The notes under the pieces: model-generated
What the model was told of the DNA's origin: nothing
Database searches by the model: none
The model's input: the letters and a program-made list of their open reading frames with translations, nothing else
NCBI GenBank assembly: GCA_016839585.1
Contig: JAEOTZ010000015.1
Span: 1,000-64,999, forward strand
Direction: 5' to 3'
DNA: 64,000 bases
Source: Promethearchaeota archaeon
GTDB taxonomy: Archaea; Asgardarchaeota; Lokiarchaeia; Sigyniarchaeales; SOKP01
In this document: positions 54,418 through 64,000 of the stretch, piece after piece
Layout of the letters: each line of letters starts with the position of its first letter
Numbering within the stretch: the stretch's first letter is position 1
Made by a program: the position numbers and the translations under genes

Positions 54418-54810
54418 TTATTTTTCAATAAACTTTGTTAATATTTTTTTGAATCTTTTAAATATTGAAGTATCACCATCAAAAGCTATTAAATTCATTC
54501 TAAATTCTTCTATGAATAATTCTTCTAATTTTTTTAGATAACCATTAATATCTTTTTCTTTATCTCTATTAGCGGATTTTAATACAAAGTATATATCATA
54601 AAGTTGATTGCAGAGAAAGTTATAATTAATATCTCCTATTCTAATAATACTACGATATTTTTCCTTATTCTTATCAACAAAGGTTTTGGCAAATGATTGA
54701 ATTGCTGAAAAAAACCCACTTTTTATCTCCGCATTCAATTCTTCATCAGGAGAGAACTTGAAAAGAGTTAATCCCTCTGAATTAATTATTAAAAACTCAC
54801 TAATATACAT
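54418..54810 (-). CDS. Small longin/roadblock-like alpha-beta domain protein
   Basis: 130 aa. ISEFLIINSEGLTLFKF (beta hairpin), IKSGFFSAIQSFAKTF (helix), IIRIGDINYNFLCNQLYDIYFVLKS (beta strands) and a terminal helix. The same pattern occurs in the C-terminal module of ORF 30631-32169. Confidence 0.55.
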   Translation of the reverse strand: MYISEFLIINSEGLTLFKFSPDEELNAEIKSGFFSAIQSFAKTFVDKNKEKYRSIIRIGDINYNFLCNQLYDIYFVLKSANRDKEKDINGYLKKLEELFIEEFRMNLIAFDGDTSIFKRFKKILTKFIEK

Positions 54811-56226: not shown

Positions 56227-56356
56227 TTTTTAAACCAGTTGACTAAATTATTATTATTTATTATTATTAAGAAATGAATAATGATCACTTATTTTTAATT
56301 AATATTTAGTTTTAACCTAAAAGGTTTTTTATTTCAAAATCTTAAATTAAATTGTT

Positions 56357-57928
56357 ATGAAACCATTTAATTCTAAAAAAATCACTTCTGAAGAGATGGC
56401 AATTTTAGATAATAACTCGGAATGGTTGGGCATTCCAAAAAGTTATTTAATGGAATGTGCAGGCTATTCTTTCGCAAGTGAAGTTATTAATCGAGGTTAC
56501 TTAGAAACTAGTTCGAAAGTAGCTATTTTTTGCGGAACTGGTAATAATGGAGGGGATGGTTTTGTTATAGCAAGGCATTTATCTTCCTATGGAGTTAGAT
56601 CTATAGTTATTTTAATAGGAGCTCCTGATAACATTAGGACTAATGAGGCACAATTGAATTGGAGTATAATTTTTAATAGTCTTAATTATTCAATAGATAT
56701 AGAAATTATTAGGGATTTAAAAGATTTAAGCCATATTAATAATATTATTAAAAAAGATAAAGAATATCAAATAATTGTAGATGGAATATTAGGAACAGGG
56801 ATTAAGGGTAATATTAGGGAACCAATAGCTTCTACGATAGATCTAATTAATGATCTTAAAAAAGCAGAACCGGAAAGATTTAAAGTTGTTTCGATCGATG
56901 TTCCTTCTGGCTTAGATCCAAATACCGGAAAAGTTACCGATAAAGCAGTAAAATCAGATTTAGTTATAACATTTCATAGGGCTAAAATCGGAATGTCTAG
57001 AACTAATGAATACATGAAAGAAATATTAGAAAAATCAATAGGCATTCCACAAGAAGCTAGGTTATTTGTTGGAAGAGGTGATCTAATCCCTACATTAAAA
57101 GTAAGAAAGGTTGATGCTTATAAAGGCCAATTTGGAAAAACTCTAATAATAGGTGGTTCAAAAAAATATTCTGGAGCACCTGCTTATGCTTCTCTAACAG
57201 GAATTCATTTTGGATGTGATTTAGTAATAACCTATGTACCAGAAGTTATCGGTAATGTTATTAGAAGTTATTCACCGAATATGATCGTTAGAACTAATCC
57301 AGGAAATTGGTTAAACATAAAAGCCTTAGAAGAAATAAAAGAGTTGATAGATTGGTCTAATGCAATAGTAATTGGTCCAGGTTTAGGTATAGAAAAAGAA
57401 ACAGAAGAATTAATAGTAAAACTTCTAGGATATTTAAAAGAGAAAAGGAAATCCTATGTTCTTGATGCCGATGCATTAAAATTAGTCAAGAATCATCTTG
57501 ATTTAATTAAAGGTGAGAGAGCTATCTTAACACCTCATCAAGGGGAATTAAAAATAATGGCTAATTTAGATTTACCTTCTTATGATAAAATAGAAGAAAG
57601 AGCAAATATGATTTTTGATCTGGCAAAAAAGCTTAATACTACTTTTTTAGTAAAAGGTCCATATGATTATATTACAAATGGTAAAAAACTAAAAATTAAT
57701 AGAACAGGTTGCCCTGAAATGTCAATTGGAGGAACTGGCGATGTTTTAGCAGGATTATGTGCCTCTTTTCTAGCAACAAATAACGATCCTTTTGAATCTG
57801 CGTGTTCAGCAGCATTTCTTAATGGTTATATAGGAGAATATTGCAAAAAAAATTTAGGAGAACGCTTTACAACAACAGATATGATAGCTAATATTAATGA
57901 TGCAATTGATAGCATAATCAGTTCTTAA
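56357..57928 (+). CDS. nnr: Bifunctional NAD(P)H-hydrate repair enzyme (epimerase + ADP-dependent dehydratase)
   Basis: YjeF-N part: MECAGYSFA, IFCGTGNNGGDGFVIARHL. C-terminal carbohydrate-kinase part: KGQFGKTLIIGGSKKYSGAPAYA, IGPGLG, LTPHQGE, GGTGDVLAGL. Confidence 0.9.
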   Translation: MKPFNSKKITSEEMAILDNNSEWLGIPKSYLMECAGYSFASEVINRGYLETSSKVAIFCGTGNNGGDGFVIARHLSSYGVRSIVILIGAPDNIRTNEAQLNWSIIFNSLNYSIDIEIIRDLKDLSHINNIIKKDKEYQIIVDGILGTGIKGNIREPIASTIDLINDLKKAEPERFKVVSIDVPSGLDPNTGKVTDKAVKSDLVITFHRAKIGMSRTNEYMKEILEKSIGIPQEARLFVGRGDLIPTLKVRKVDAYKGQFGKTLIIGGSKKYSGAPAYASLTGIHFGCDLVITYVPEVIGNVIRSYSPNMIVRTNPGNWLNIKALEEIKELIDWSNAIVIGPGLGIEKETEELIVKLLGYLKEKRKSYVLDADALKLVKNHLDLIKGERAILTPHQGELKIMANLDLPSYDKIEERANMIFDLAKKLNTTFLVKGPYDYITNGKKLKINRTGCPEMSIGGTGDVLAGLCASFLATNNDPFESACSAAFLNGYIGEYCKKNLGERFTTTDMIANINDAIDSIISS

Positions 57929-58066
57929 CATTTTTGAAAAAAATTAAAAGTAATTAAAAAAATATAAGATTGTTAGGGAGTGAATTTTTGTTAAAATAAA
58001 AGTTTATTAACTCCTAATATTATTATATACTTAATTAATTATAATGAATCTTTGAGTTGAGGTAAA

Positions 58067-58912
58067 GTGGTTGGACTTCAAGTTTTCAAAATTCTTCCCG
58101 ATGGTACGACTACTGAAATTATTACCGATAGACCGATAAAAGACGTTTTAGAAACTAGTGAGTGCTACGTTATTGTTGCTGATGAAGTTAGAAAAGTATA
58201 TCTCTGGAAAGGAATCACAAGTAGCGTTAGATCCAAATTCATTGGAGCTAAACGAAGCCAAGAAATCAGAGGACAAGTTGGTTTACATTATGCTGTACTT
58301 CCACTTGATGAGGGTGAAGAAGAACCAGAATTTATACGGTTGATTGGCGGAAAGACAGAAGCAGGTCATGCAAAAGAGATTAAAGCTGAACCAGGTACTC
58401 AAGCATCAGCTCCAGCGGTGCATCCTTTAAGGGAAAAAAATATTTTTGGTACTCCAAGACCAGCTGAAGGGATGAATATAGCAGGAAGCAAAGAACGTGC
58501 TGCTTTAAATAGAGGACCTTTATATACTGGAGAAGGTTCCATGGCAGCTCTTATGCGAGATGAAAGCCAAGTAGATTTTCAAGGTGTTATGAAAAAATTA
58601 GAAGAAATTCAGATACCTGCTGGTTTTGAAAGAGAACTTATCATTATTGGAAATCAAGCATATTCTGTTGTTGAAAAGGTTCAGCAATTTTTAGGTAAAA
58701 AAGAAGTTACAAAAGAGATATCAAAAGTAGGGTCCATTCCAGAAGGCATCTTTTTTGCTGAGGACTACTCACCTCGCATTTTGTCAGAAAACGGAAAAAT
58801 AATTGCTATTGAATTTTTAAAACGCGCTGGCGCACTAATAAAACCAGTACAACCAAAGGATAAAAGAGAACTTTTAAAAGAACAAATTAAAGAACAACTT
58901 GGTGGAAATTAG
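58067..58912 (+). CDS. Gelsolin-domain protein (one gelsolin-like domain plus an uncharacterised C-terminal domain)
   Basis: N-terminal ~95 aa: ETSECYVIVADEVRKVYLWKGITSSVRSKFIGAKRSQEIRGQVG, EPEFIRLIGG. This follows the gelsolin-repeat pattern (cYil...iyvWqG..ss..ek..a). The rest is unassigned. GTG start. Confidence 0.7.
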   Translation: MVGLQVFKILPDGTTTEIITDRPIKDVLETSECYVIVADEVRKVYLWKGITSSVRSKFIGAKRSQEIRGQVGLHYAVLPLDEGEEEPEFIRLIGGKTEAGHAKEIKAEPGTQASAPAVHPLREKNIFGTPRPAEGMNIAGSKERAALNRGPLYTGEGSMAALMRDESQVDFQGVMKKLEEIQIPAGFERELIIIGNQAYSVVEKVQQFLGKKEVTKEISKVGSIPEGIFFAEDYSPRILSENGKIIAIEFLKRAGALIKPVQPKDKRELLKEQIKEQLGGN

Positions 58913-59137
58913 AAATAATATTCCTTCCAGCTTCTAATTTCTTATTAAATAATTCTAAAATAAATGATTATTAAAAACTAATTCTTAAACTTATTTTCTC
59001 TTAATTGATTTGATTAAAATCTTCAATTAGATTAAGAAAACTATAACTAAACTTTTAAGTATAACTAGGATTTAAAATTTGAGATATAAATTTTTAAACC
59101 CAAAACACTTTATAATTATTAATTGAATTAAAAATAA

Positions 59138-59542
59138 TTGTTGCAACCAAAATTGTCCGATTTATCACCACAAGAAGCTCAAAGTTTAAGTAAGTTTTTA
59201 GGTAGTATAACTGAATACACAGAGTTAGAAGCCCTAGCTTTGGTGACTCGTGAAGGCTTACGCTTAGCATTTTCATGTGTTCCGGGGTATAACATTGATC
59301 CTGATTTATTTTCAAGCCTTAGTGCTGTAGTTATGCAATCTGGCTATGATGCAGTTAATTCTCTTGGATATACTCATATGCTTGAAGTAGTATTGAGAGG
59401 AGAAAATGGATTTATAATTCTCTCAGCAGCCGGAAGTTTCTTTCTCATGGGTGCATCAAGACAATCTGCAGATTTGGGTAAAGTAGTCACAGTATTCAGA
59501 TATTACGCAGGAGAGATCGCTAAACGATACCCAATGTCATAA
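59138..59542 (+). CDS. Roadblock/LC7 (MglB-like) domain protein
   Basis: LEALALVTREGLRLAFS, PDLFSSLSAVVMQSGYDAVNSLG, MLEVVLRGENGFIILSAAGSFFLMGASRQSADLGKV. This is the canonical Roadblock topology. TTG start. Confidence 0.8.
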   Translation: MLQPKLSDLSPQEAQSLSKFLGSITEYTELEALALVTREGLRLAFSCVPGYNIDPDLFSSLSAVVMQSGYDAVNSLGYTHMLEVVLRGENGFIILSAAGSFFLMGASRQSADLGKVVTVFRYYAGEIAKRYPMS

Positions 59543-59732
59543 TTTTTTAACCTTTGTTAAAAAAATCATTAAAAAAAATTTTAGTAGAATATCTGTTAGG
59601 AATTAAAATTTTAGTATCAATTATGATTTTCAAGCTAAATCCCCATTATTGTGTTATTATAAAAACACTTATTTTAAAAAAGATAAATATATTAATTTAT
59701 AGATAGTATAAAAATAAATTTGAGATTTTATC

Positions 59733-61901
59733 ATGCTAGAAATTAAAATTTTTGTCGATGTGAATGAAGAAATTACAAATAAAGTTGTAATCTGTCAATC
59801 AAATGCCGATAAATTAGGAGTTAAAAATGGGGGGTCAATAGAAGTTGTAAATCCTGATAATAACTTAAAGAAAACTGCAACTTTGGAGATATCTGATATG
59901 GTTTTAGATTTTGCAGGGCAAGTTGCCAAAAATGTACTTGAGGATTTACAATTTAGCGGAGTTGAATTAGCTATTCGCCCAGTAAGTGCAGCAGCATCCC
60001 TTACACCTATGTTAAAAATTCCAAAAGTTCCAGCACCAAAATCAACTCCAACACCTCAACCAACCCAACCATCTACATTATCTCCATTACCTACACCACC
60101 ACCTAGTGTAGCTCCATCCCTTCAACCTACACATGAACCAACTCTTACACCCGCTCCTGTCCCCCAACCCATACCAACTCCACAACCGGCACCAGTACCT
60201 CAGTTCAAGCCACCTCCCCAACCCACACCCACCCCTCAACCATCATTATCCCCTTTGCCTACTCCCCCTCCTCAGCCAACTCCTGCCCAATTCACTCAAC
60301 CATCTATGGGACAGCCTTCAATAGAACCCGGAGCTCCAGCAGAACCATATCCAAATAGAATAGATATAAATATGTTACAAAGTCAGAAAAATGGAATAAT
60401 TTTAACACCAGTTATTGATAATTCTATAGAAGGAGGGCGAATACAACTGAGTAATTCCATTATTCAACGATTAGGTCTAGGACGAGGAATGCTTATAGCC
60501 TGGGAAGATCCATTAACACGAGCTATGGGCTCAGCAAGAATAGATGCCGCAAACATTTTAGATACTCAAATTAAAATGAGTTATGATACTAAAGAAGATA
60601 CAAACATTCACTCACAACAAATTATTGTTTACTCCACAGAACCTCCAATACAAAAAGCTTCGGAAATAATGCTAGAGGTTCAATCACAACCTAATTTGAT
60701 GGGACATGCCTTAGTTAGCCCAAGAACTCAATATACACTTTCAATAATGCAAGATGATATACTTGCATTTGAAGATGAATTAACAGGAGCGATTGGAGCT
60801 GGTAAAGTTGAAATCTTAGAATCAGTACCAGATAATACAATTATTATCGACAGTGAAATTCTTGAAGCCTCAGGTATCGGGAGCTTTGAGGTTAAAATTT
60901 CAAAAAATCAAAGAGCTATTATCCCTCTACAAAATATTTCGCTAGGAATTTCCCCTATTTCGGGTGAAAATATGTGGGAAATTATAAGTACTGCTCGACA
61001 AAATGTAGCATCCTTAAAAGGCTGGATCTCGAATTATATTATTTTCAAAGGTATTAAACTTAGATGGTCTGCAGTGAATATTGCTTGTTCAATACTAAAT
61101 ACTGTTCCTGATCTAACTGGAGATATATTTGCTAAGGTAACAGAAAATACAGCATTAAGTTTAAGTCCAACAGGGTTGGTCCCTTTTAATGCTATTTTGA
61201 TAATTGATATCAGTCGGTCAATGATGGCAAGGGATGTCTTTGTTACCAATATTGCTCCTGCAATAGAAGGAATTAAAGCCGCTATGGAATCTAGAGAAAT
61301 TCAAGAATTTTTAAAGCACTTCAAAGATGGCATATACATACCCCGTAGAATATCAGCAGCATTTGCAGCGGTCCTTTTCTTAAGTGAAAAGGTTGGAAGA
61401 GGCTTTGGAGAAAAAGTCTCTGTAATACGCTTCGCCGATGAAGCACAAATACTCCCTTTCGGAGATTCCTTCTATATGGATTCTGCAAGTGGTAAAAAAG
61501 GTGTTCTTGAAGATGCAGCAAGGTTAATTGTTGATAGGATTGGTAATTCATATGGGCAAGCTACTAATATGGGCCCTGCATTGCTTTCAGCACAGCAGGT
61601 ATTAGCTGAATTTGATAGATTAAGTCCAGATCAACCAACGATGATAGTCTTCCTTACAGACGGCGTTCCAACAGACGGAGACGCTTTTTTCAATGAAATT
61701 AAGAAATTGGCAGATAACCCGAATATTGTTGTATATCTTGTTGGAATGGGAAATCCAGATGATGAATTGATGACTAGAGCTGCAGCCTTATGTGGTGGTG
61801 AATACTTCAAACCGGAAGATGCTGGAGAACTGTTAATCTGGTATTCAAAGCGAGCAAGAGATCTAACAGTTAAACTTAAAGCTCATAAAGGAGGGTTATA
61901 A
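59733..61901 (+). CDS. Multidomain protein: three small beta-barrel (CDC48-N/AbrB-like) repeats, Pro/Thr-rich linker, C-terminal von Willebrand A domain
   Basis: vWA with an intact MIDAS: ILIIDISRSMM (DxSxS), QATNMGPAL, VFLTDGVPTDGD. The repeat pattern VVICQSNADKLGVKNGGSIEVVNP / RIQLSNSIIQRLGLGRGMLIAWEDP / ALVSPRTQYTLSIMQDDILAFEDE resembles swapped-hairpin or double-psi barrels. The linker spans aa ~97-205. Confidence 0.75.
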   Translation: MLEIKIFVDVNEEITNKVVICQSNADKLGVKNGGSIEVVNPDNNLKKTATLEISDMVLDFAGQVAKNVLEDLQFSGVELAIRPVSAAASLTPMLKIPKVPAPKSTPTPQPTQPSTLSPLPTPPPSVAPSLQPTHEPTLTPAPVPQPIPTPQPAPVPQFKPPPQPTPTPQPSLSPLPTPPPQPTPAQFTQPSMGQPSIEPGAPAEPYPNRIDINMLQSQKNGIILTPVIDNSIEGGRIQLSNSIIQRLGLGRGMLIAWEDPLTRAMGSARIDAANILDTQIKMSYDTKEDTNIHSQQIIVYSTEPPIQKASEIMLEVQSQPNLMGHALVSPRTQYTLSIMQDDILAFEDELTGAIGAGKVEILESVPDNTIIIDSEILEASGIGSFEVKISKNQRAIIPLQNISLGISPISGENMWEIISTARQNVASLKGWISNYIIFKGIKLRWSAVNIACSILNTVPDLTGDIFAKVTENTALSLSPTGLVPFNAILIIDISRSMMARDVFVTNIAPAIEGIKAAMESREIQEFLKHFKDGIYIPRRISAAFAAVLFLSEKVGRGFGEKVSVIRFADEAQILPFGDSFYMDSASGKKGVLEDAARLIVDRIGNSYGQATNMGPALLSAQQVLAEFDRLSPDQPTMIVFLTDGVPTDGDAFFNEIKKLADNPNIVVYLVGMGNPDDELMTRAAALCGGEYFKPEDAGELLIWYSKRARDLTVKLKAHKGGL
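60021..60350 (+). repeat. Pro/Thr/Gln-rich low-complexity coding segment with an internal duplication (local GC-rich patch)
   Basis: The translation contains TPTPQPTQPSTLSPLPTPPPSVAP and later TPTPQPSLSPLPTPPPQPTPA. The C-rich DNA stands out from the AT-rich surroundings and produces a spurious alternate-frame ORF (60133-60324). Confidence 0.8.
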
Positions 61902-61968
61902 GTTTTCTGGGATTTTTTTTAATTTTAAATATTGTAATAAGAGTTATAAATTCAAATTTTAGGTTATT

Positions 61969-62607
61969 TTGAGTTTTTACTTATTAATTGATTTCTCGCA
62001 AATAAATAATATAATCAAAAAATTAGAGGTAACGGTAAAGAAAAAACATTATTCTGAACTCTCTGCTTTATATCAAAGTATTTGGGATCAAGTACGATTA
62101 TCTCATAAAAAAGCTGAAAAATTAGTTCCTGTAGTCCTGTATATATTCTTTAAAATAAAATGTATCAAAATTAGCTCAAAAAAAATTATTGAGGCTTCAA
62201 ATCTTCCAGAGAAAAAATTTAGAAATTATTTGTTAGAAGCTGTAAGATATTGTCCCGAATATCTATCTCGGGATCGTACCAAGGTTGTTCAGAAACTTTT
62301 ACTTTATGTAATAAACCACTTCCACTTTGATCATGACTTTGTACAAGTATCCAATTCTCTTTTAAGGAAATTTTGGAATAGACTTACCAATACAACGGAT
62401 AGTAATATTGCGGGAGTCATTTGTATACTAACCATGATAAAATTAGATGTAAATTCAGTTAGCTACAATGCGATCTGTAGAAAATTAGGAATTCGAATGA
62501 GTAGTGTGTTTTATCAAGTAAAACATCGTATCTTAAGAAGTGAAACTGCTGAAAAGTTCACAGGATTTAAACGAAGCAGAAATTTATTGAAACCACTATT
62601 AACATAA
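61969..62607 (+). CDS. Possible TFB/TFIIB-core-like (cyclin-fold) protein lacking Zn-ribbon
   Basis: Two helical repeats each end in an HTH-like segment (KISSKKIIEASNLPEKKFRNYLLEAVRY and NIAGVICILTMIKLDVNSVSYNAICRKLGIRMSSVFYQVKHRI), reminiscent of TFIIB core cyclin repeats. Weak, by-eye assignment. TTG start. Confidence 0.4.
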   Translation: MSFYLLIDFSQINNIIKKLEVTVKKKHYSELSALYQSIWDQVRLSHKKAEKLVPVVLYIFFKIKCIKISSKKIIEASNLPEKKFRNYLLEAVRYCPEYLSRDRTKVVQKLLLYVINHFHFDHDFVQVSNSLLRKFWNRLTNTTDSNIAGVICILTMIKLDVNSVSYNAICRKLGIRMSSVFYQVKHRILRSETAEKFTGFKRSRNLLKPLLT

Positions 62608-62676
62608 TTAGAGTCTCTTTAATATAACAATATAGACATACTTCAAGTAATTTTTCTTTAAATAACTAGAAAAACA

Positions 62677-63423
62677 ATGTATATAAACCCAACTTTTGTG
62701 ATAATAAAAATGGCAGATAGTCATAATAAGAGCTTCTTTGGACAGAAAAATGCCCTGATACTAGATAGTCCCTCGAAGAACACTTCCTTCATTTTTTTTA
62801 CTTGTATTAAAAAGAAGGAAAATGGAACATGGGAAAAAATCTCTAAAAATGAAGGCAAGAAGGTAAAATGTGAATTAGAAGACATGGTAATGATATTAGA
62901 AGTCTTATCTCAAAAAAGTGATGCATGGAGCACCGTTCACACCTTTAACGAAGAAAAAACAACAATTTCGTTCAAATGGGATAAAGAAAAGAATCATACT
63001 TTATGGCTAAATATTGGGAATTATTCCAAGATGCTAAACTTTACTCAAGTTAAGATATTTAAATTATTATTAAAACATATTTTAAAAGAGAAAATTGCGT
63101 TTGCTACCGTTCCTAAAAATCTAAAACCTTTTGAAAAGACAAATAATAATAAACAAATTCCAGTAAAACCCCAAGATTTTTTTGAAGATAAGAAAAATAA
63201 CGATTTAATTGTGGTCGAGCAAGTAGACGTAGAAAATGAAACCAGCAATGTGAAGGCTATAATTACAGGTGAGACTCAAAAAGCACTTCTTCTTTTATAT
63301 AATGGAGCAGAAGAAGTGTGGACTCCTAAGTCCATAATACACTCTAAATATGAATCAACAAAAGGAGTAACGCAAACCTTTTCAATTGAGAACTGGTTTC
63401 TAAAGAAAAATAATATTAAATAG
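62677..63423 (+). CDS. Hypothetical protein
   Basis: Clean 248-aa ORF with coding-like composition. No motif recognised. Confidence 0.5.
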   Translation: MYINPTFVIIKMADSHNKSFFGQKNALILDSPSKNTSFIFFTCIKKKENGTWEKISKNEGKKVKCELEDMVMILEVLSQKSDAWSTVHTFNEEKTTISFKWDKEKNHTLWLNIGNYSKMLNFTQVKIFKLLLKHILKEKIAFATVPKNLKPFEKTNNNKQIPVKPQDFFEDKKNNDLIVVEQVDVENETSNVKAIITGETQKALLLLYNGAEEVWTPKSIIHSKYESTKGVTQTFSIENWFLKKNNIK

Positions 63424-63435
63424 AGAGGTAAAAAA

Positions 63436-63702
63436 ATGATAATAATTAAAGGGGAAAAAACGCTTTTCGGTAAAGAAATAAAGACACCAGAAGAATTTAT
63501 TGAGGACTTGTGCGAACGAATTACTCGTATTTATAACTTAGCAATGGAAGAAAATTTAGTGAGTAAAGATAAGAAAGTTAAAATCGTAATATATCAAGGT
63601 CACATACACATAATAAACTTTAACGACGATATAAAAGATAAAAAGCAAAATCTGATTGAAAGAAATACTGAGAATAGTGGGGAAGGTTGTTCAATTCAAT
63701 AA
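63436..63702 (+). CDS. Hypothetical small protein
   Basis: 88-aa ORF starting 12 nt after the previous gene, preceded by a purine-rich stretch (agagaggtaaaaaa). No motif recognised. Confidence 0.4.
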   Translation: MIIIKGEKTLFGKEIKTPEEFIEDLCERITRIYNLAMEENLVSKDKKVKIVIYQGHIHIINFNDDIKDKKQNLIERNTENSGEGCSIQ

Positions 63703-64000
63703 TTCTTCAATATCCTTAATTCTTTCTAACATCCACTTTTTAAATTTTGAAAAATCATGAATAGAGGGTAATTCAATAGTCTCCTTGGGTAAATTACTTT
63801 TATCTCCTCTTTGATCTTTGACTATAGTTTTGCCAAATAAATTAGTAATAATCCCAATTGGTAACTTTAACTTCTGAAATATAACTTGAAAATCATTTAA
63901 GTCATTTTCAGATAAAGTATATTTGGAAATCCTCATCTGTACCCATTCCTGTAAAAACTCTTCGGCAATGCCATCTTTCCAGTGGTGATTTCGTAAATAG
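63691..64000 (-). CDS. Hypothetical protein, N-terminus outside window
   Basis: The minus-strand frame stays open upstream of the tracked ATG (63936) to the window edge (...YLRNHHWKDGIAEEFLQEWVQMRISKY...). The real start is probably beyond nt 64000. Confidence 0.45.
   Translation of the reverse strand, partial: YLRNHHWKDGIAEEFLQEWVQMRISKYTLSENDLNDFQVIFQKLKLPIGIITNLFGKTIVKDQRGDKSNLPKETIELPSIHDFSKFKKWMLERIKDIEELLN

Follow-up and report, generated by a model that had tools for sequence, protein, structure and literature searches.

The window analysed here, a 64,000-nucleotide stretch of low-GC DNA (~30%) from a Promethearchaeota archaeon of the Lokiarchaeia (contig JAEOTZ010000015.1, positions 1,000 to 64,999), carries on its plus strand four consecutive open reading frames (ORFs) which a preliminary description, made from the DNA letters alone, had proposed as a cytoskeleton-associated cluster: a gelsolin-domain protein (G1, GelX), a Roadblock/LC7 protein (G2, Robl), a multidomain protein with a von Willebrand factor A (vWA) domain (G3, the vWA gene) and a fourth ORF (G4). 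All four are present, separated by gaps of 225–240 nt (G1-G2), 190 nt (G2-G3) and 67 nt (G3-G4), and they are preceded by NNR (56357–57928, plus strand), which encodes an NAD(P)HX repair enzyme with YjeF_N (2e-39) and Carb_kinase (2e-48) domains. G1, G2 and G3 form a real and conserved gene neighbourhood, apparently undescribed, around a known type of actin regulator. The nearest relatives of each gene examined are Asgard archaea, labelled as Promethearchaeota, Lokiarchaeota or Lokiarchaeia.

Synteny was sampled with one genome per species, giving 80 Promethearchaeota loci with GelX identities of 63–94% (individual loci are referred to by L numbers). The order NNR-G1-G2-G3 is found in 72–76 of these 80 species-level genomes: GelX is present in all 80 loci, NNR lies directly upstream in 76, Roadblock is present in 74 and the vWA gene directly follows Roadblock in 72, the absences of NNR, Roadblock and vWA coinciding with contig ends. 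The flanking genes DUF169 and YhhN are found in 28 and 23 of the 80 loci, respectively, at variable distances. The trio lies on one strand in nearly all loci, with median gaps of 165 and 222 nt in Lokiarchaeia, and its order is conserved across ~100 loci, which is beyond chance. Gaps of more than 600 nt occur inside the trio in 1 of 75 and 4 of 73 loci, and at the junction between the vWA gene and the ACT gene that follows it in relatives in 16 of 56, so that this junction is an insertion hot spot. Conservation of synteny, suggested beforehand as a check, holds for G1–G3 (72–76 of 80 loci, plus distant lineages) and not for G4, which has a counterpart in no related locus. No GTPase gene occurs in the Lokiarchaeial neighbourhoods examined; the conserved upstream clusters considered as GTPases proved to be MarR, PNPOx-like, DUF3795, flavin reductase, carbonic anhydrase and dehydrogenase genes.

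Beyond Lokiarchaeia, Odinarchaeum LCB_4 carries a Ras-family GTPase, NNR, GelX and Roadblock in this order, with 2 nt between the last two and without a vWA gene, and L089 has the same arrangement. In L087, GelX and Roadblock (30-nt gap) stand in a different context, also without vWA, while in L088 (GelX identity 58%) NNR, GelX and Roadblock are followed immediately by the ACT-c5-actin-like-CHAT operon described below, again with no vWA gene in between. The GelX-Roadblock gap is 2–31 nt in Odinarchaeum, L087, L088 and L111, and Roadblock adjoins GelX in 14 of the 16 metagenome loci having room downstream. The vWA gene is directly downstream of Roadblock in L098, L104, L106 and L107 as well, where the G3 orthologues of L098 and L104 possess the full barrel-spacer-vWA architecture; L111 encodes a G3 relative with a spacer rich in glutamate and lysine (E/K-rich) and a variant metal ion-dependent adhesion site (MIDAS; DLTRS). 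Roadblock is inverted beside GelX in L094 and L099, whose contigs end before any vWA gene. Proximity survives rearrangement, as Roadblock in L098 is inverted and still lies between GelX and vWA, and as in L084, L086 and L090 a G3 homologue (33% over 424 aa, E 3e-64), divergently oriented, lies at a distance of three genes from a GelX paralogue that has no Roadblock beside it. Three different gene arrangements thus place a G3 homologue near GelX. As judged from these gene orders, the GelX-Roadblock pair is the deep core and is older than the trio. In lineages related to Lokiarchaeia the barrel-vWA protein recurs as a third member, and the actin-like operon is a frequent neighbour.

The lineage names used here are affected by the NCBI labels of the JBHL* assemblies (Hodarchaeota, Hermodarchaeota, Thorarchaeota, Odinarchaeota), which conflict with sequence relationships: L089 is labelled Hodarchaeota and has the gene order of Odinarchaeum LCB_4, and four class labels are found among loci whose GelX proteins are 75–80% identical. 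In Odin-type loci, a long Ras/Arf-family GTPase gene is located just upstream of NNR-GelX-Roadblock (L083 5664–7337, 557 aa; L089 3507–5345), the 612-aa product of L089 being fused to a peptidase M20 domain; these genes have no counterpart in Lokiarchaeial loci. NNR itself is directly upstream of GelX-Roadblock also in L088, Odinarchaeum, L089 and several metagenome lineages, and a functional reason for this adjacency was not found.

G1 (58067–58912, plus strand; 281 aa, GTG start) comprises a gelsolin-fold domain (residues 1–100; 58067–58366), recognised by a phmmer search of PDB and by Foldseek, a linker predicted to be disordered (residues 101–162; 58367–58552; predicted local distance difference test, pLDDT, 25–31), a domain X of about 100 residues (residues 163–262; 58553–58852), delimited from alignments of the GelX family, and a short C-terminal helix. 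Residues ~7–96 resemble the solved Asgard gelsolins Loki 2DGel (7whg, 1.6e-7) and Thor ProGel (7c2f, 2e-4) in the phmmer search, where adseverin is also matched (E 0.018). The AlphaFold2 (AF2) model of this domain (pLDDT 67–83) superposes on actin-bound Thor ProGel (7c2f_B), the top Foldseek match, with a TM-score of 0.84 and a root-mean-square deviation (rmsd) of 2.4 Å, the next matches being domains of villin, gelsolin and adseverin. The G1 sequence of the window alone has no Pfam match, PF00626 included; 22 of 35 diverse family members match PF00626 (best 4e-6), some above the cut-off. The N-terminal domain of G1 is a gelsolin fold, as had been claimed. A homologue search for GelX gives 513 proteins, and a search of representative sequences gives 400 clusters (E up to 1e-3); the family includes a protein of Odinarchaeum LCB_4 named gelsolin-like in UniRef, and its architecture is kept at identities as low as ~22%.

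The additional domain that had been noted in G1 is likewise real, since domain X is conserved at the C-terminus with the consensus P.G..RE..IIG...Y...E....F.GK...PEG.FFAE.Y.PRV...NG.V.AIEFLK. The linker before it bears two short motifs, whose columns do not vary among Loki orthologues. HPLREKNxFGxPxPAEGMNIAGS is present in Loki-type GelX having the vWA gene and missing from the vWA-less L088, and GPLY[TKR]G is retained in homologues as low as 31% identity; these near-invariant motifs look like docking sites for a partner. Domain X has no Pfam family, and a PDB profile search yields only a His-tag/thrombin-site artefact in 5ejw (E 1.2); where members of the GelX family match DUF7904, the match covers the gelsolin domain and leaves X out. 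In the AF2 model domain X looks mixed alpha/beta, at a confidence too low for interpretation. The AF2 alignments for G1 and G3 hold close homologues only, the overall pLDDT values of the two models are 50.6 and 47.9, respectively, and interpretation is restricted to confident domains. Two assignments of domain X were rejected, namely a Roadblock-like partner of G2, as the similar 'helix, PxG, strand' pattern gains a probability of only 1.3% in hhalign, and a second, degenerate gelsolin repeat, as X aligns with the gelsolin domain at an hhalign probability of 0.2%.

By its domain order, G1 is assigned to the 1DGelX architecture of Akil et al., with one gelsolin domain and a non-gelsolin C-terminal X, an architecture reported in all Asgard phyla with X predicted to be a coiled coil (PMC7444086). 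Thor 1DGelX binds rabbit actin with a dissociation constant (Kd) of 7.7 µM and severs filaments in vitro in a Ca-independent manner (Akil et al. 2020, PMC7444086), and by analogy with such relatives G1 would bind actin too (PMC7444086). In both proteins a single gelsolin/cofilin-fold domain at the N-terminus is joined through a linker to domain X at the C-terminus. However, X of Thor 1DGelX is predicted to be a coiled coil, whereas X of G1 is a conserved ~100-aa domain, mixed alpha/beta in the low-confidence model; and Thor 1DGelX has been treated as stand-alone (PMC7444086), whereas the G1 gene is linked to a Roadblock gene of its own and, within Lokiarchaeia, to a vWA gene as well.

G2 (59153–59542, plus strand; 129 aa) probably begins at the TTG codon at 59153, not at 59138 where the listed ORF starts, because its orthologues open with MSDLTPEEA and this codon is also the start in an independent gene call. 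Its Roadblock/LC7 identity is upheld by the Pfam family Robl_LC7 (PF03259; 27.4 bits, cut-off 23), and the solved Asgard Roadblock 7f8m is matched in PDB at 2e-4. G2 is 73–81% identical within Loki and 43–48% identical to the GelX-adjoining Roadblock of Odinarchaeum, L087 and L089, the Roadblock beside GelX being one orthologue throughout (43–76% identity). It is better conserved than GelX (76% versus 58% in L088; 44–48% versus 28–34% in Odinarchaeum, L087 and L089), an unusually strong constraint for a 129-aa protein. Roadblock dimers act as GTPase platforms, and the partners of Roadblock proteins or of GTPases are seldom evident from genome layout (PMC10933270). G2 shares the single ~130-aa Roadblock domain with the Roadblock/LC7-MglB-LAMTOR platforms (MglA-MglB; Ragulator; Asgard dimers, PMC10933270). 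However, the known partners of Roadblock proteins are small GTPases or dynein, whereas the conserved neighbour of G2 is a gelsolin-domain protein, and a GTPase gene lies near a G2-type Roadblock in Odin-type loci only.

G3 (59733–61901, plus strand; 722 aa, 414 homologues) contains, from the N-terminus, a first barrel with a fold probably like that of the Cdc48/p97 N-domain (residues 1–88; 59733–59996), a proline-rich linker (residues ~89–206; 59997–60350) with two LSPLPTPP motifs, a second and a third barrel (residues ~207–304 and 305–400; 60351–60932) recognised from the AF2 model and hhalign, a mostly helical middle region (residues ~401–485; 60933–61187) with highly conserved columns and low pLDDT, and a vWA domain with a complete MIDAS (61188–61877), supported by Pfam and Foldseek. 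The vWA domain matches PF00092 (34.2 bits, cut-off 23.8; 3.8e-8) and VWA_2 (PF13519; 31.8 bits, cut-off 27; 2.4e-7), and its structural matches include ITIH1, TRAP, TFIIH p44/p34 and ANTXR (Foldseek probability 1.00). The five MIDAS residues (D492-x-S494-x-S496, T611 and D643) show no variation in the 19 orthologues scored; DxSxS is present also in L098, L104 and L090, while L111 has DLTRS instead. The proline-rich linker and the MIDAS-complete vWA domain given for this 722-aa protein are thus confirmed, whereas the domain order is not, as the linker follows barrel 1 and precedes barrels 2–3 instead of separating all three barrels from the vWA domain.

The G3 model is confident at residues 1–88 (pLDDT 85–93) and 215–300 (pLDDT 72–87), where barrels 1 and 2 share the order beta-beta-alpha-beta-beta-beta-alpha-beta. 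Chains of the p97 N-domain align with one of the barrels (rmsd 1.7–1.9 Å over 81–83 columns, Foldseek probability 1.00), which is taken to be barrel 1 as the most confident of them, the Foldseek output naming no barrel; CDC48_N is not matched by the barrels in the Pfam scan. Barrel 3 resembles barrel 2 (hhalign 80%, E 1.4e-5), through which alone it is tied to Cdc48-N, and is retained in a Jord-like G3 homologue; the middle region is alignable to the L090 homologue. The proline-rich stretch (residues 88–206; 119 aa, 37% Pro) ranges from 65 to 154 aa among orthologues and gives way to a segment that is E/K-rich or acidic in the homologues L111 and L090, and it behaves, as far as the alignments indicate, as a replaceable spacer of variable length. 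The earlier suggestion that this tract serves as a profilin or SH3 ligand was set aside as weak, as the linker is variable and replaceable and Loki profilins reportedly fail to bind polyproline (PMC8410842). G3 shares the vWA fold and the complete DxSxS...T...D motif with vWA/MIDAS scaffolds such as integrin I-domains, ITIH, TRAP, Rpn10 and TFIIH p44/p34, but differs from them in its three N-terminal, putatively Cdc48-N-like barrels split by a proline-rich spacer. No family in the Pfam scan covers this N-terminal architecture. To our knowledge, the barrel-spacer-vWA architecture has not been described.

In relatives, the vWA gene is followed by an operon in 50 of the 54 loci having room for it (for instance L082 12381–17430 and L002 7532–12599; also in L088, 8447–13488; all outside the window). 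The operon is tightly packed, with median gaps of 21–50 nt, and encodes a protein with AbrB and ACT domains, a ~250-aa lysine-rich/coiled-coil protein (c5), an actin-family protein and a helical protein of ~860 aa that ends in a CHAT (caspase-like) domain. The actin-family protein matches PF00022 at 1e-48 and is not Lokiactin, as all solved actins are equally distant from it (~1e-36). Within the window, the operon gives no tblastn matches. Three such genes for proteins similar to actin-related proteins (ARP-like) are present in L. ossiferum beside Lokiactin, where ARP-like expression is several-fold lower in culture. An actin paralogue is here coupled to a protease-like protein of the CHAT type. 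L104 (13085–13878) keeps NNR-GelX-Roadblock-vWA-ACT-c5 and has lost the actin-like and CHAT genes, being followed by a c9-like protein and a DNA methyltransferase; the actin-like pair is thus separable from the trio by loss.

Gene pairs that remain adjacent over large divergence usually encode cooperating proteins, and on this ground a cytoskeleton-associated module is the preferred explanation: G1, G2 and G3 most likely encode proteins acting together on actin-family filaments, a reading that we hold with as much belief as doubt. The N-terminal gelsolin domain of G1 would bind actin, as the biochemistry of Thor 1DGelX and the co-crystals of ProGel and 2DGel with actin suggest, while domain X, the linker motifs or both may recruit G2, in keeping with the persistence of the GelX-Roadblock pair across classes. 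G2 may serve as a dimeric adaptor or regulatory platform. In Lokiarchaeia, G3 would be a scaffold or tether, as its domains and its repeated co-location with GelX suggest: its three putatively Cdc48-N-like barrels may bind peptides, the spacer would be long and flexible, and the MIDAS of the vWA domain may use a metal ion to hold on to an acidic residue in a partner. The target filament may be formed by the divergent actin-like protein encoded downstream in relatives, by Lokiactin or by both. Of the cytoskeletal assembly originally proposed, the synteny, the gelsolin fold and the adjoining actin-family operon speak in favour, while its inclusion of G4 and its proline argument have fallen away.

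Several points weigh against joint action on actin. It rests on folds, motifs and synteny, from which we infer the contact between G1 and G2 and the scaffold role of G3; G1 is set beside the tested Thor 1DGelX by architecture, not by comparison with its sequence, domain X has no recognisable fold, and both AF2 models are poor (50.6 and 47.9). The module also varies in membership, as some GelX subfamilies have no adjoining Roadblock (L086, L090, L108, L110), Odinarchaeum, L087 and L088 lack the vWA gene and L104 lacks the actin-like gene. The median gaps of 165–222 nt suggest that the trio genes may be transcribed separately, and the housekeeping gene NNR is equally syntenic, so a stable gene order in this region need not reflect any obvious functional connection. 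The last two points also favour an account in which functionally unrelated G1–G3 genes have simply kept an inherited order in a slowly rearranging stretch with NNR: these gaps permit independent promoters, and NNR, which has no known cytoskeletal role, is as positionally conserved as G2 and G3. Moreover, all 80 genome loci come from one phylum-level group with GelX identity of at least 63%, and most Asgard eukaryote-like genes lie outside conserved neighbourhoods (Liu et al., bioRxiv 10.1101/2020.10.19.343400). We nevertheless regard inherited order as an unlikely explanation, since both flanks have decayed while the block persisted, insertions gather at the vWA/ACT junction (16 of 56) and seldom interrupt the trio (1 of 75 and 4 of 73), GelX-Roadblock persists with a 2-nt gap in a different class at 28–34% GelX identity, adjacency outlives the inversion of Roadblock, and members of the vWA family also occur near GelX in another, divergent arrangement.

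If the three proteins do cooperate, they may serve the neighbouring ARP-like protein and its CHAT partner as a second, specialised filament system, not Lokiactin. The position of the operon, which follows the trio in 50 of 54 loci and Roadblock directly in L088, the equal distance of the actin-like protein from all solved actins (~1e-36), which sets it apart from Lokiactin, and the three such genes of L. ossiferum beside Lokiactin all point this way. However, GelX-Roadblock occurs without a nearby actin-like gene in Odinarchaeum, L087 and L089, L104 keeps the trio without the actin-like and CHAT genes, the frequent vWA/ACT insertions suggest two separate units, and ARP-like expression is several-fold under that of Lokiactin in culture, so this specialised role seems improbable. 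Sec23/24, which works with a small GTPase, contains a vWA-like trunk together with a beta-barrel and a gelsolin-like domain, and the barrel, vWA and gelsolin domains of G1 and G3 might be read as an echo of this coat split over several genes, in a small-GTPase or membrane-traffic device. Such a device would accord with the role of Roadblock dimers as GTPase platforms (PMC10933270) and with the Ras/Arf-family GTPase gene just upstream of NNR-GelX-Roadblock in Odinarchaeum and L089. It is, however, very unlikely. The vocabulary shared with the Sec23/Sec24 COPII inner coat (beta-barrel, vWA-like trunk, gelsolin-like domain) is here distributed over separate proteins, with another type of barrel, an intact MIDAS and neither zinc finger nor helical domain, and the Sec23/24-like reading was rejected because it finds support neither in Pfam, where no Sec23/24 domain is matched, nor in the top 50 Foldseek structures for the G3 vWA domain, from which Sec23/24 is missing and among which ITIH, TRAP, TFIIH and ANTXR are the best matches. 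The G3 barrels look Cdc48-N-like, the G1 domain is nearest to actin-binding Asgard gelsolins, and the Lokiarchaeial neighbourhoods examined have no GTPase gene.

Within the preferred reading of a cytoskeleton-associated module, a more specific scheme can be drawn by analogy, which we consider quite unlikely as it stands: GelX-Roadblock would be a switchable actin-severing or capping unit, in which a Roadblock dimer docked on X or on GPLYxG reads the nucleotide state of a small GTPase, as MglB and Ragulator do, and so brings filament cutting under the control of that GTPase, and in Loki the vWA/Cdc48-N-barrel protein would tether this unit to a second structure via its MIDAS. If this is true, the unit would be an archaeal forerunner of small-GTPase control over the actin cytoskeleton.

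The GelX-Roadblock pairing, the barrel-spacer-vWA protein and their link to an actin-like operon were not found in the literature searched. Each of the components (1DGelX, Roadblock, vWA) had been known before, and their conserved combination is apparently undescribed. The conserved Asgard neighbourhoods listed by Liu et al. (bioRxiv 10.1101/2020.10.19.343400) include ESCRT-ubiquitin and LAMTOR1-like-Rab-like-DENN clusters and not the present one; they likewise join a Roadblock-superfamily gene to another eukaryote-signature gene, but differ in membership from gelsolin-X, Roadblock and vWA genes beside an actin-like operon. As Asgard gelsolins have been published as stand-alone proteins, the gelsolin-Roadblock pair, which extends from Lokiarchaeia to Odinarchaeia, supplies concrete candidate partners for them, and so do the vWA scaffold and the adjacent actin-like operon, all testable in vitro and in cultured strains. 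If the proteins interact, they would connect two groups of eukaryote-signature proteins so far studied apart, namely actin regulators and Roadblock platforms.

Upstream of the trio by 3.3 kb, a 130-aa protein encoded on the minus strand (54418–54810) shows a weak longin-domain match (Fuz_longin_1, 0.0045). It is placed outside the module, as it is kept only in the closest relatives L002 and L003 and weakly in L060.

G4 (61969–62607, plus strand; 212 aa, TTG start) is the first gene of a strain-specific island, as it has no homologue in relatives and the identity with L082, which parallels the window from 56325 to 62004 with 96% DNA identity and then diverges, ends at 62004. None of the 80 related loci, three of which have 92–94% protein identity across the trio, contains a homologue of G4–G7, and G4 was therefore rejected as a member of the cluster in which it had been placed; it is syntenic nowhere and opens the island. 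It has no significant match in Pfam, NCBIfam or PHROGs and none in PDB at E up to 10. The cyclin-fold or TFB-like nature given to it was not confirmed, the only sub-threshold Pfam matches being DUF7647 (0.0017) and the cyclin-like ORC6_2nd (0.012).

The left edge of the island, which exceeds 11 kb, occupies 62005–64000 of the window, and the island continues in L119 (1–10931), a contig from the same sample that is 100% identical to 62493–64000 of the window and extends ~9.4 kb further without reaching host genes. It occupies the vWA/ACT junction, where relatives have the ACT-c5-actin-like-CHAT operon. Its genes encode G4–G6, a 376-aa protein, an Arf-family GTPase, an RPA-like OB-fold protein, an XPG/FEN1-like nuclease and a RadA/Rad51-like recombinase, and the C-terminus of G5 matches phrog_8389 (1.6e-7). 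The island is probably an integrated mobile element or provirus.

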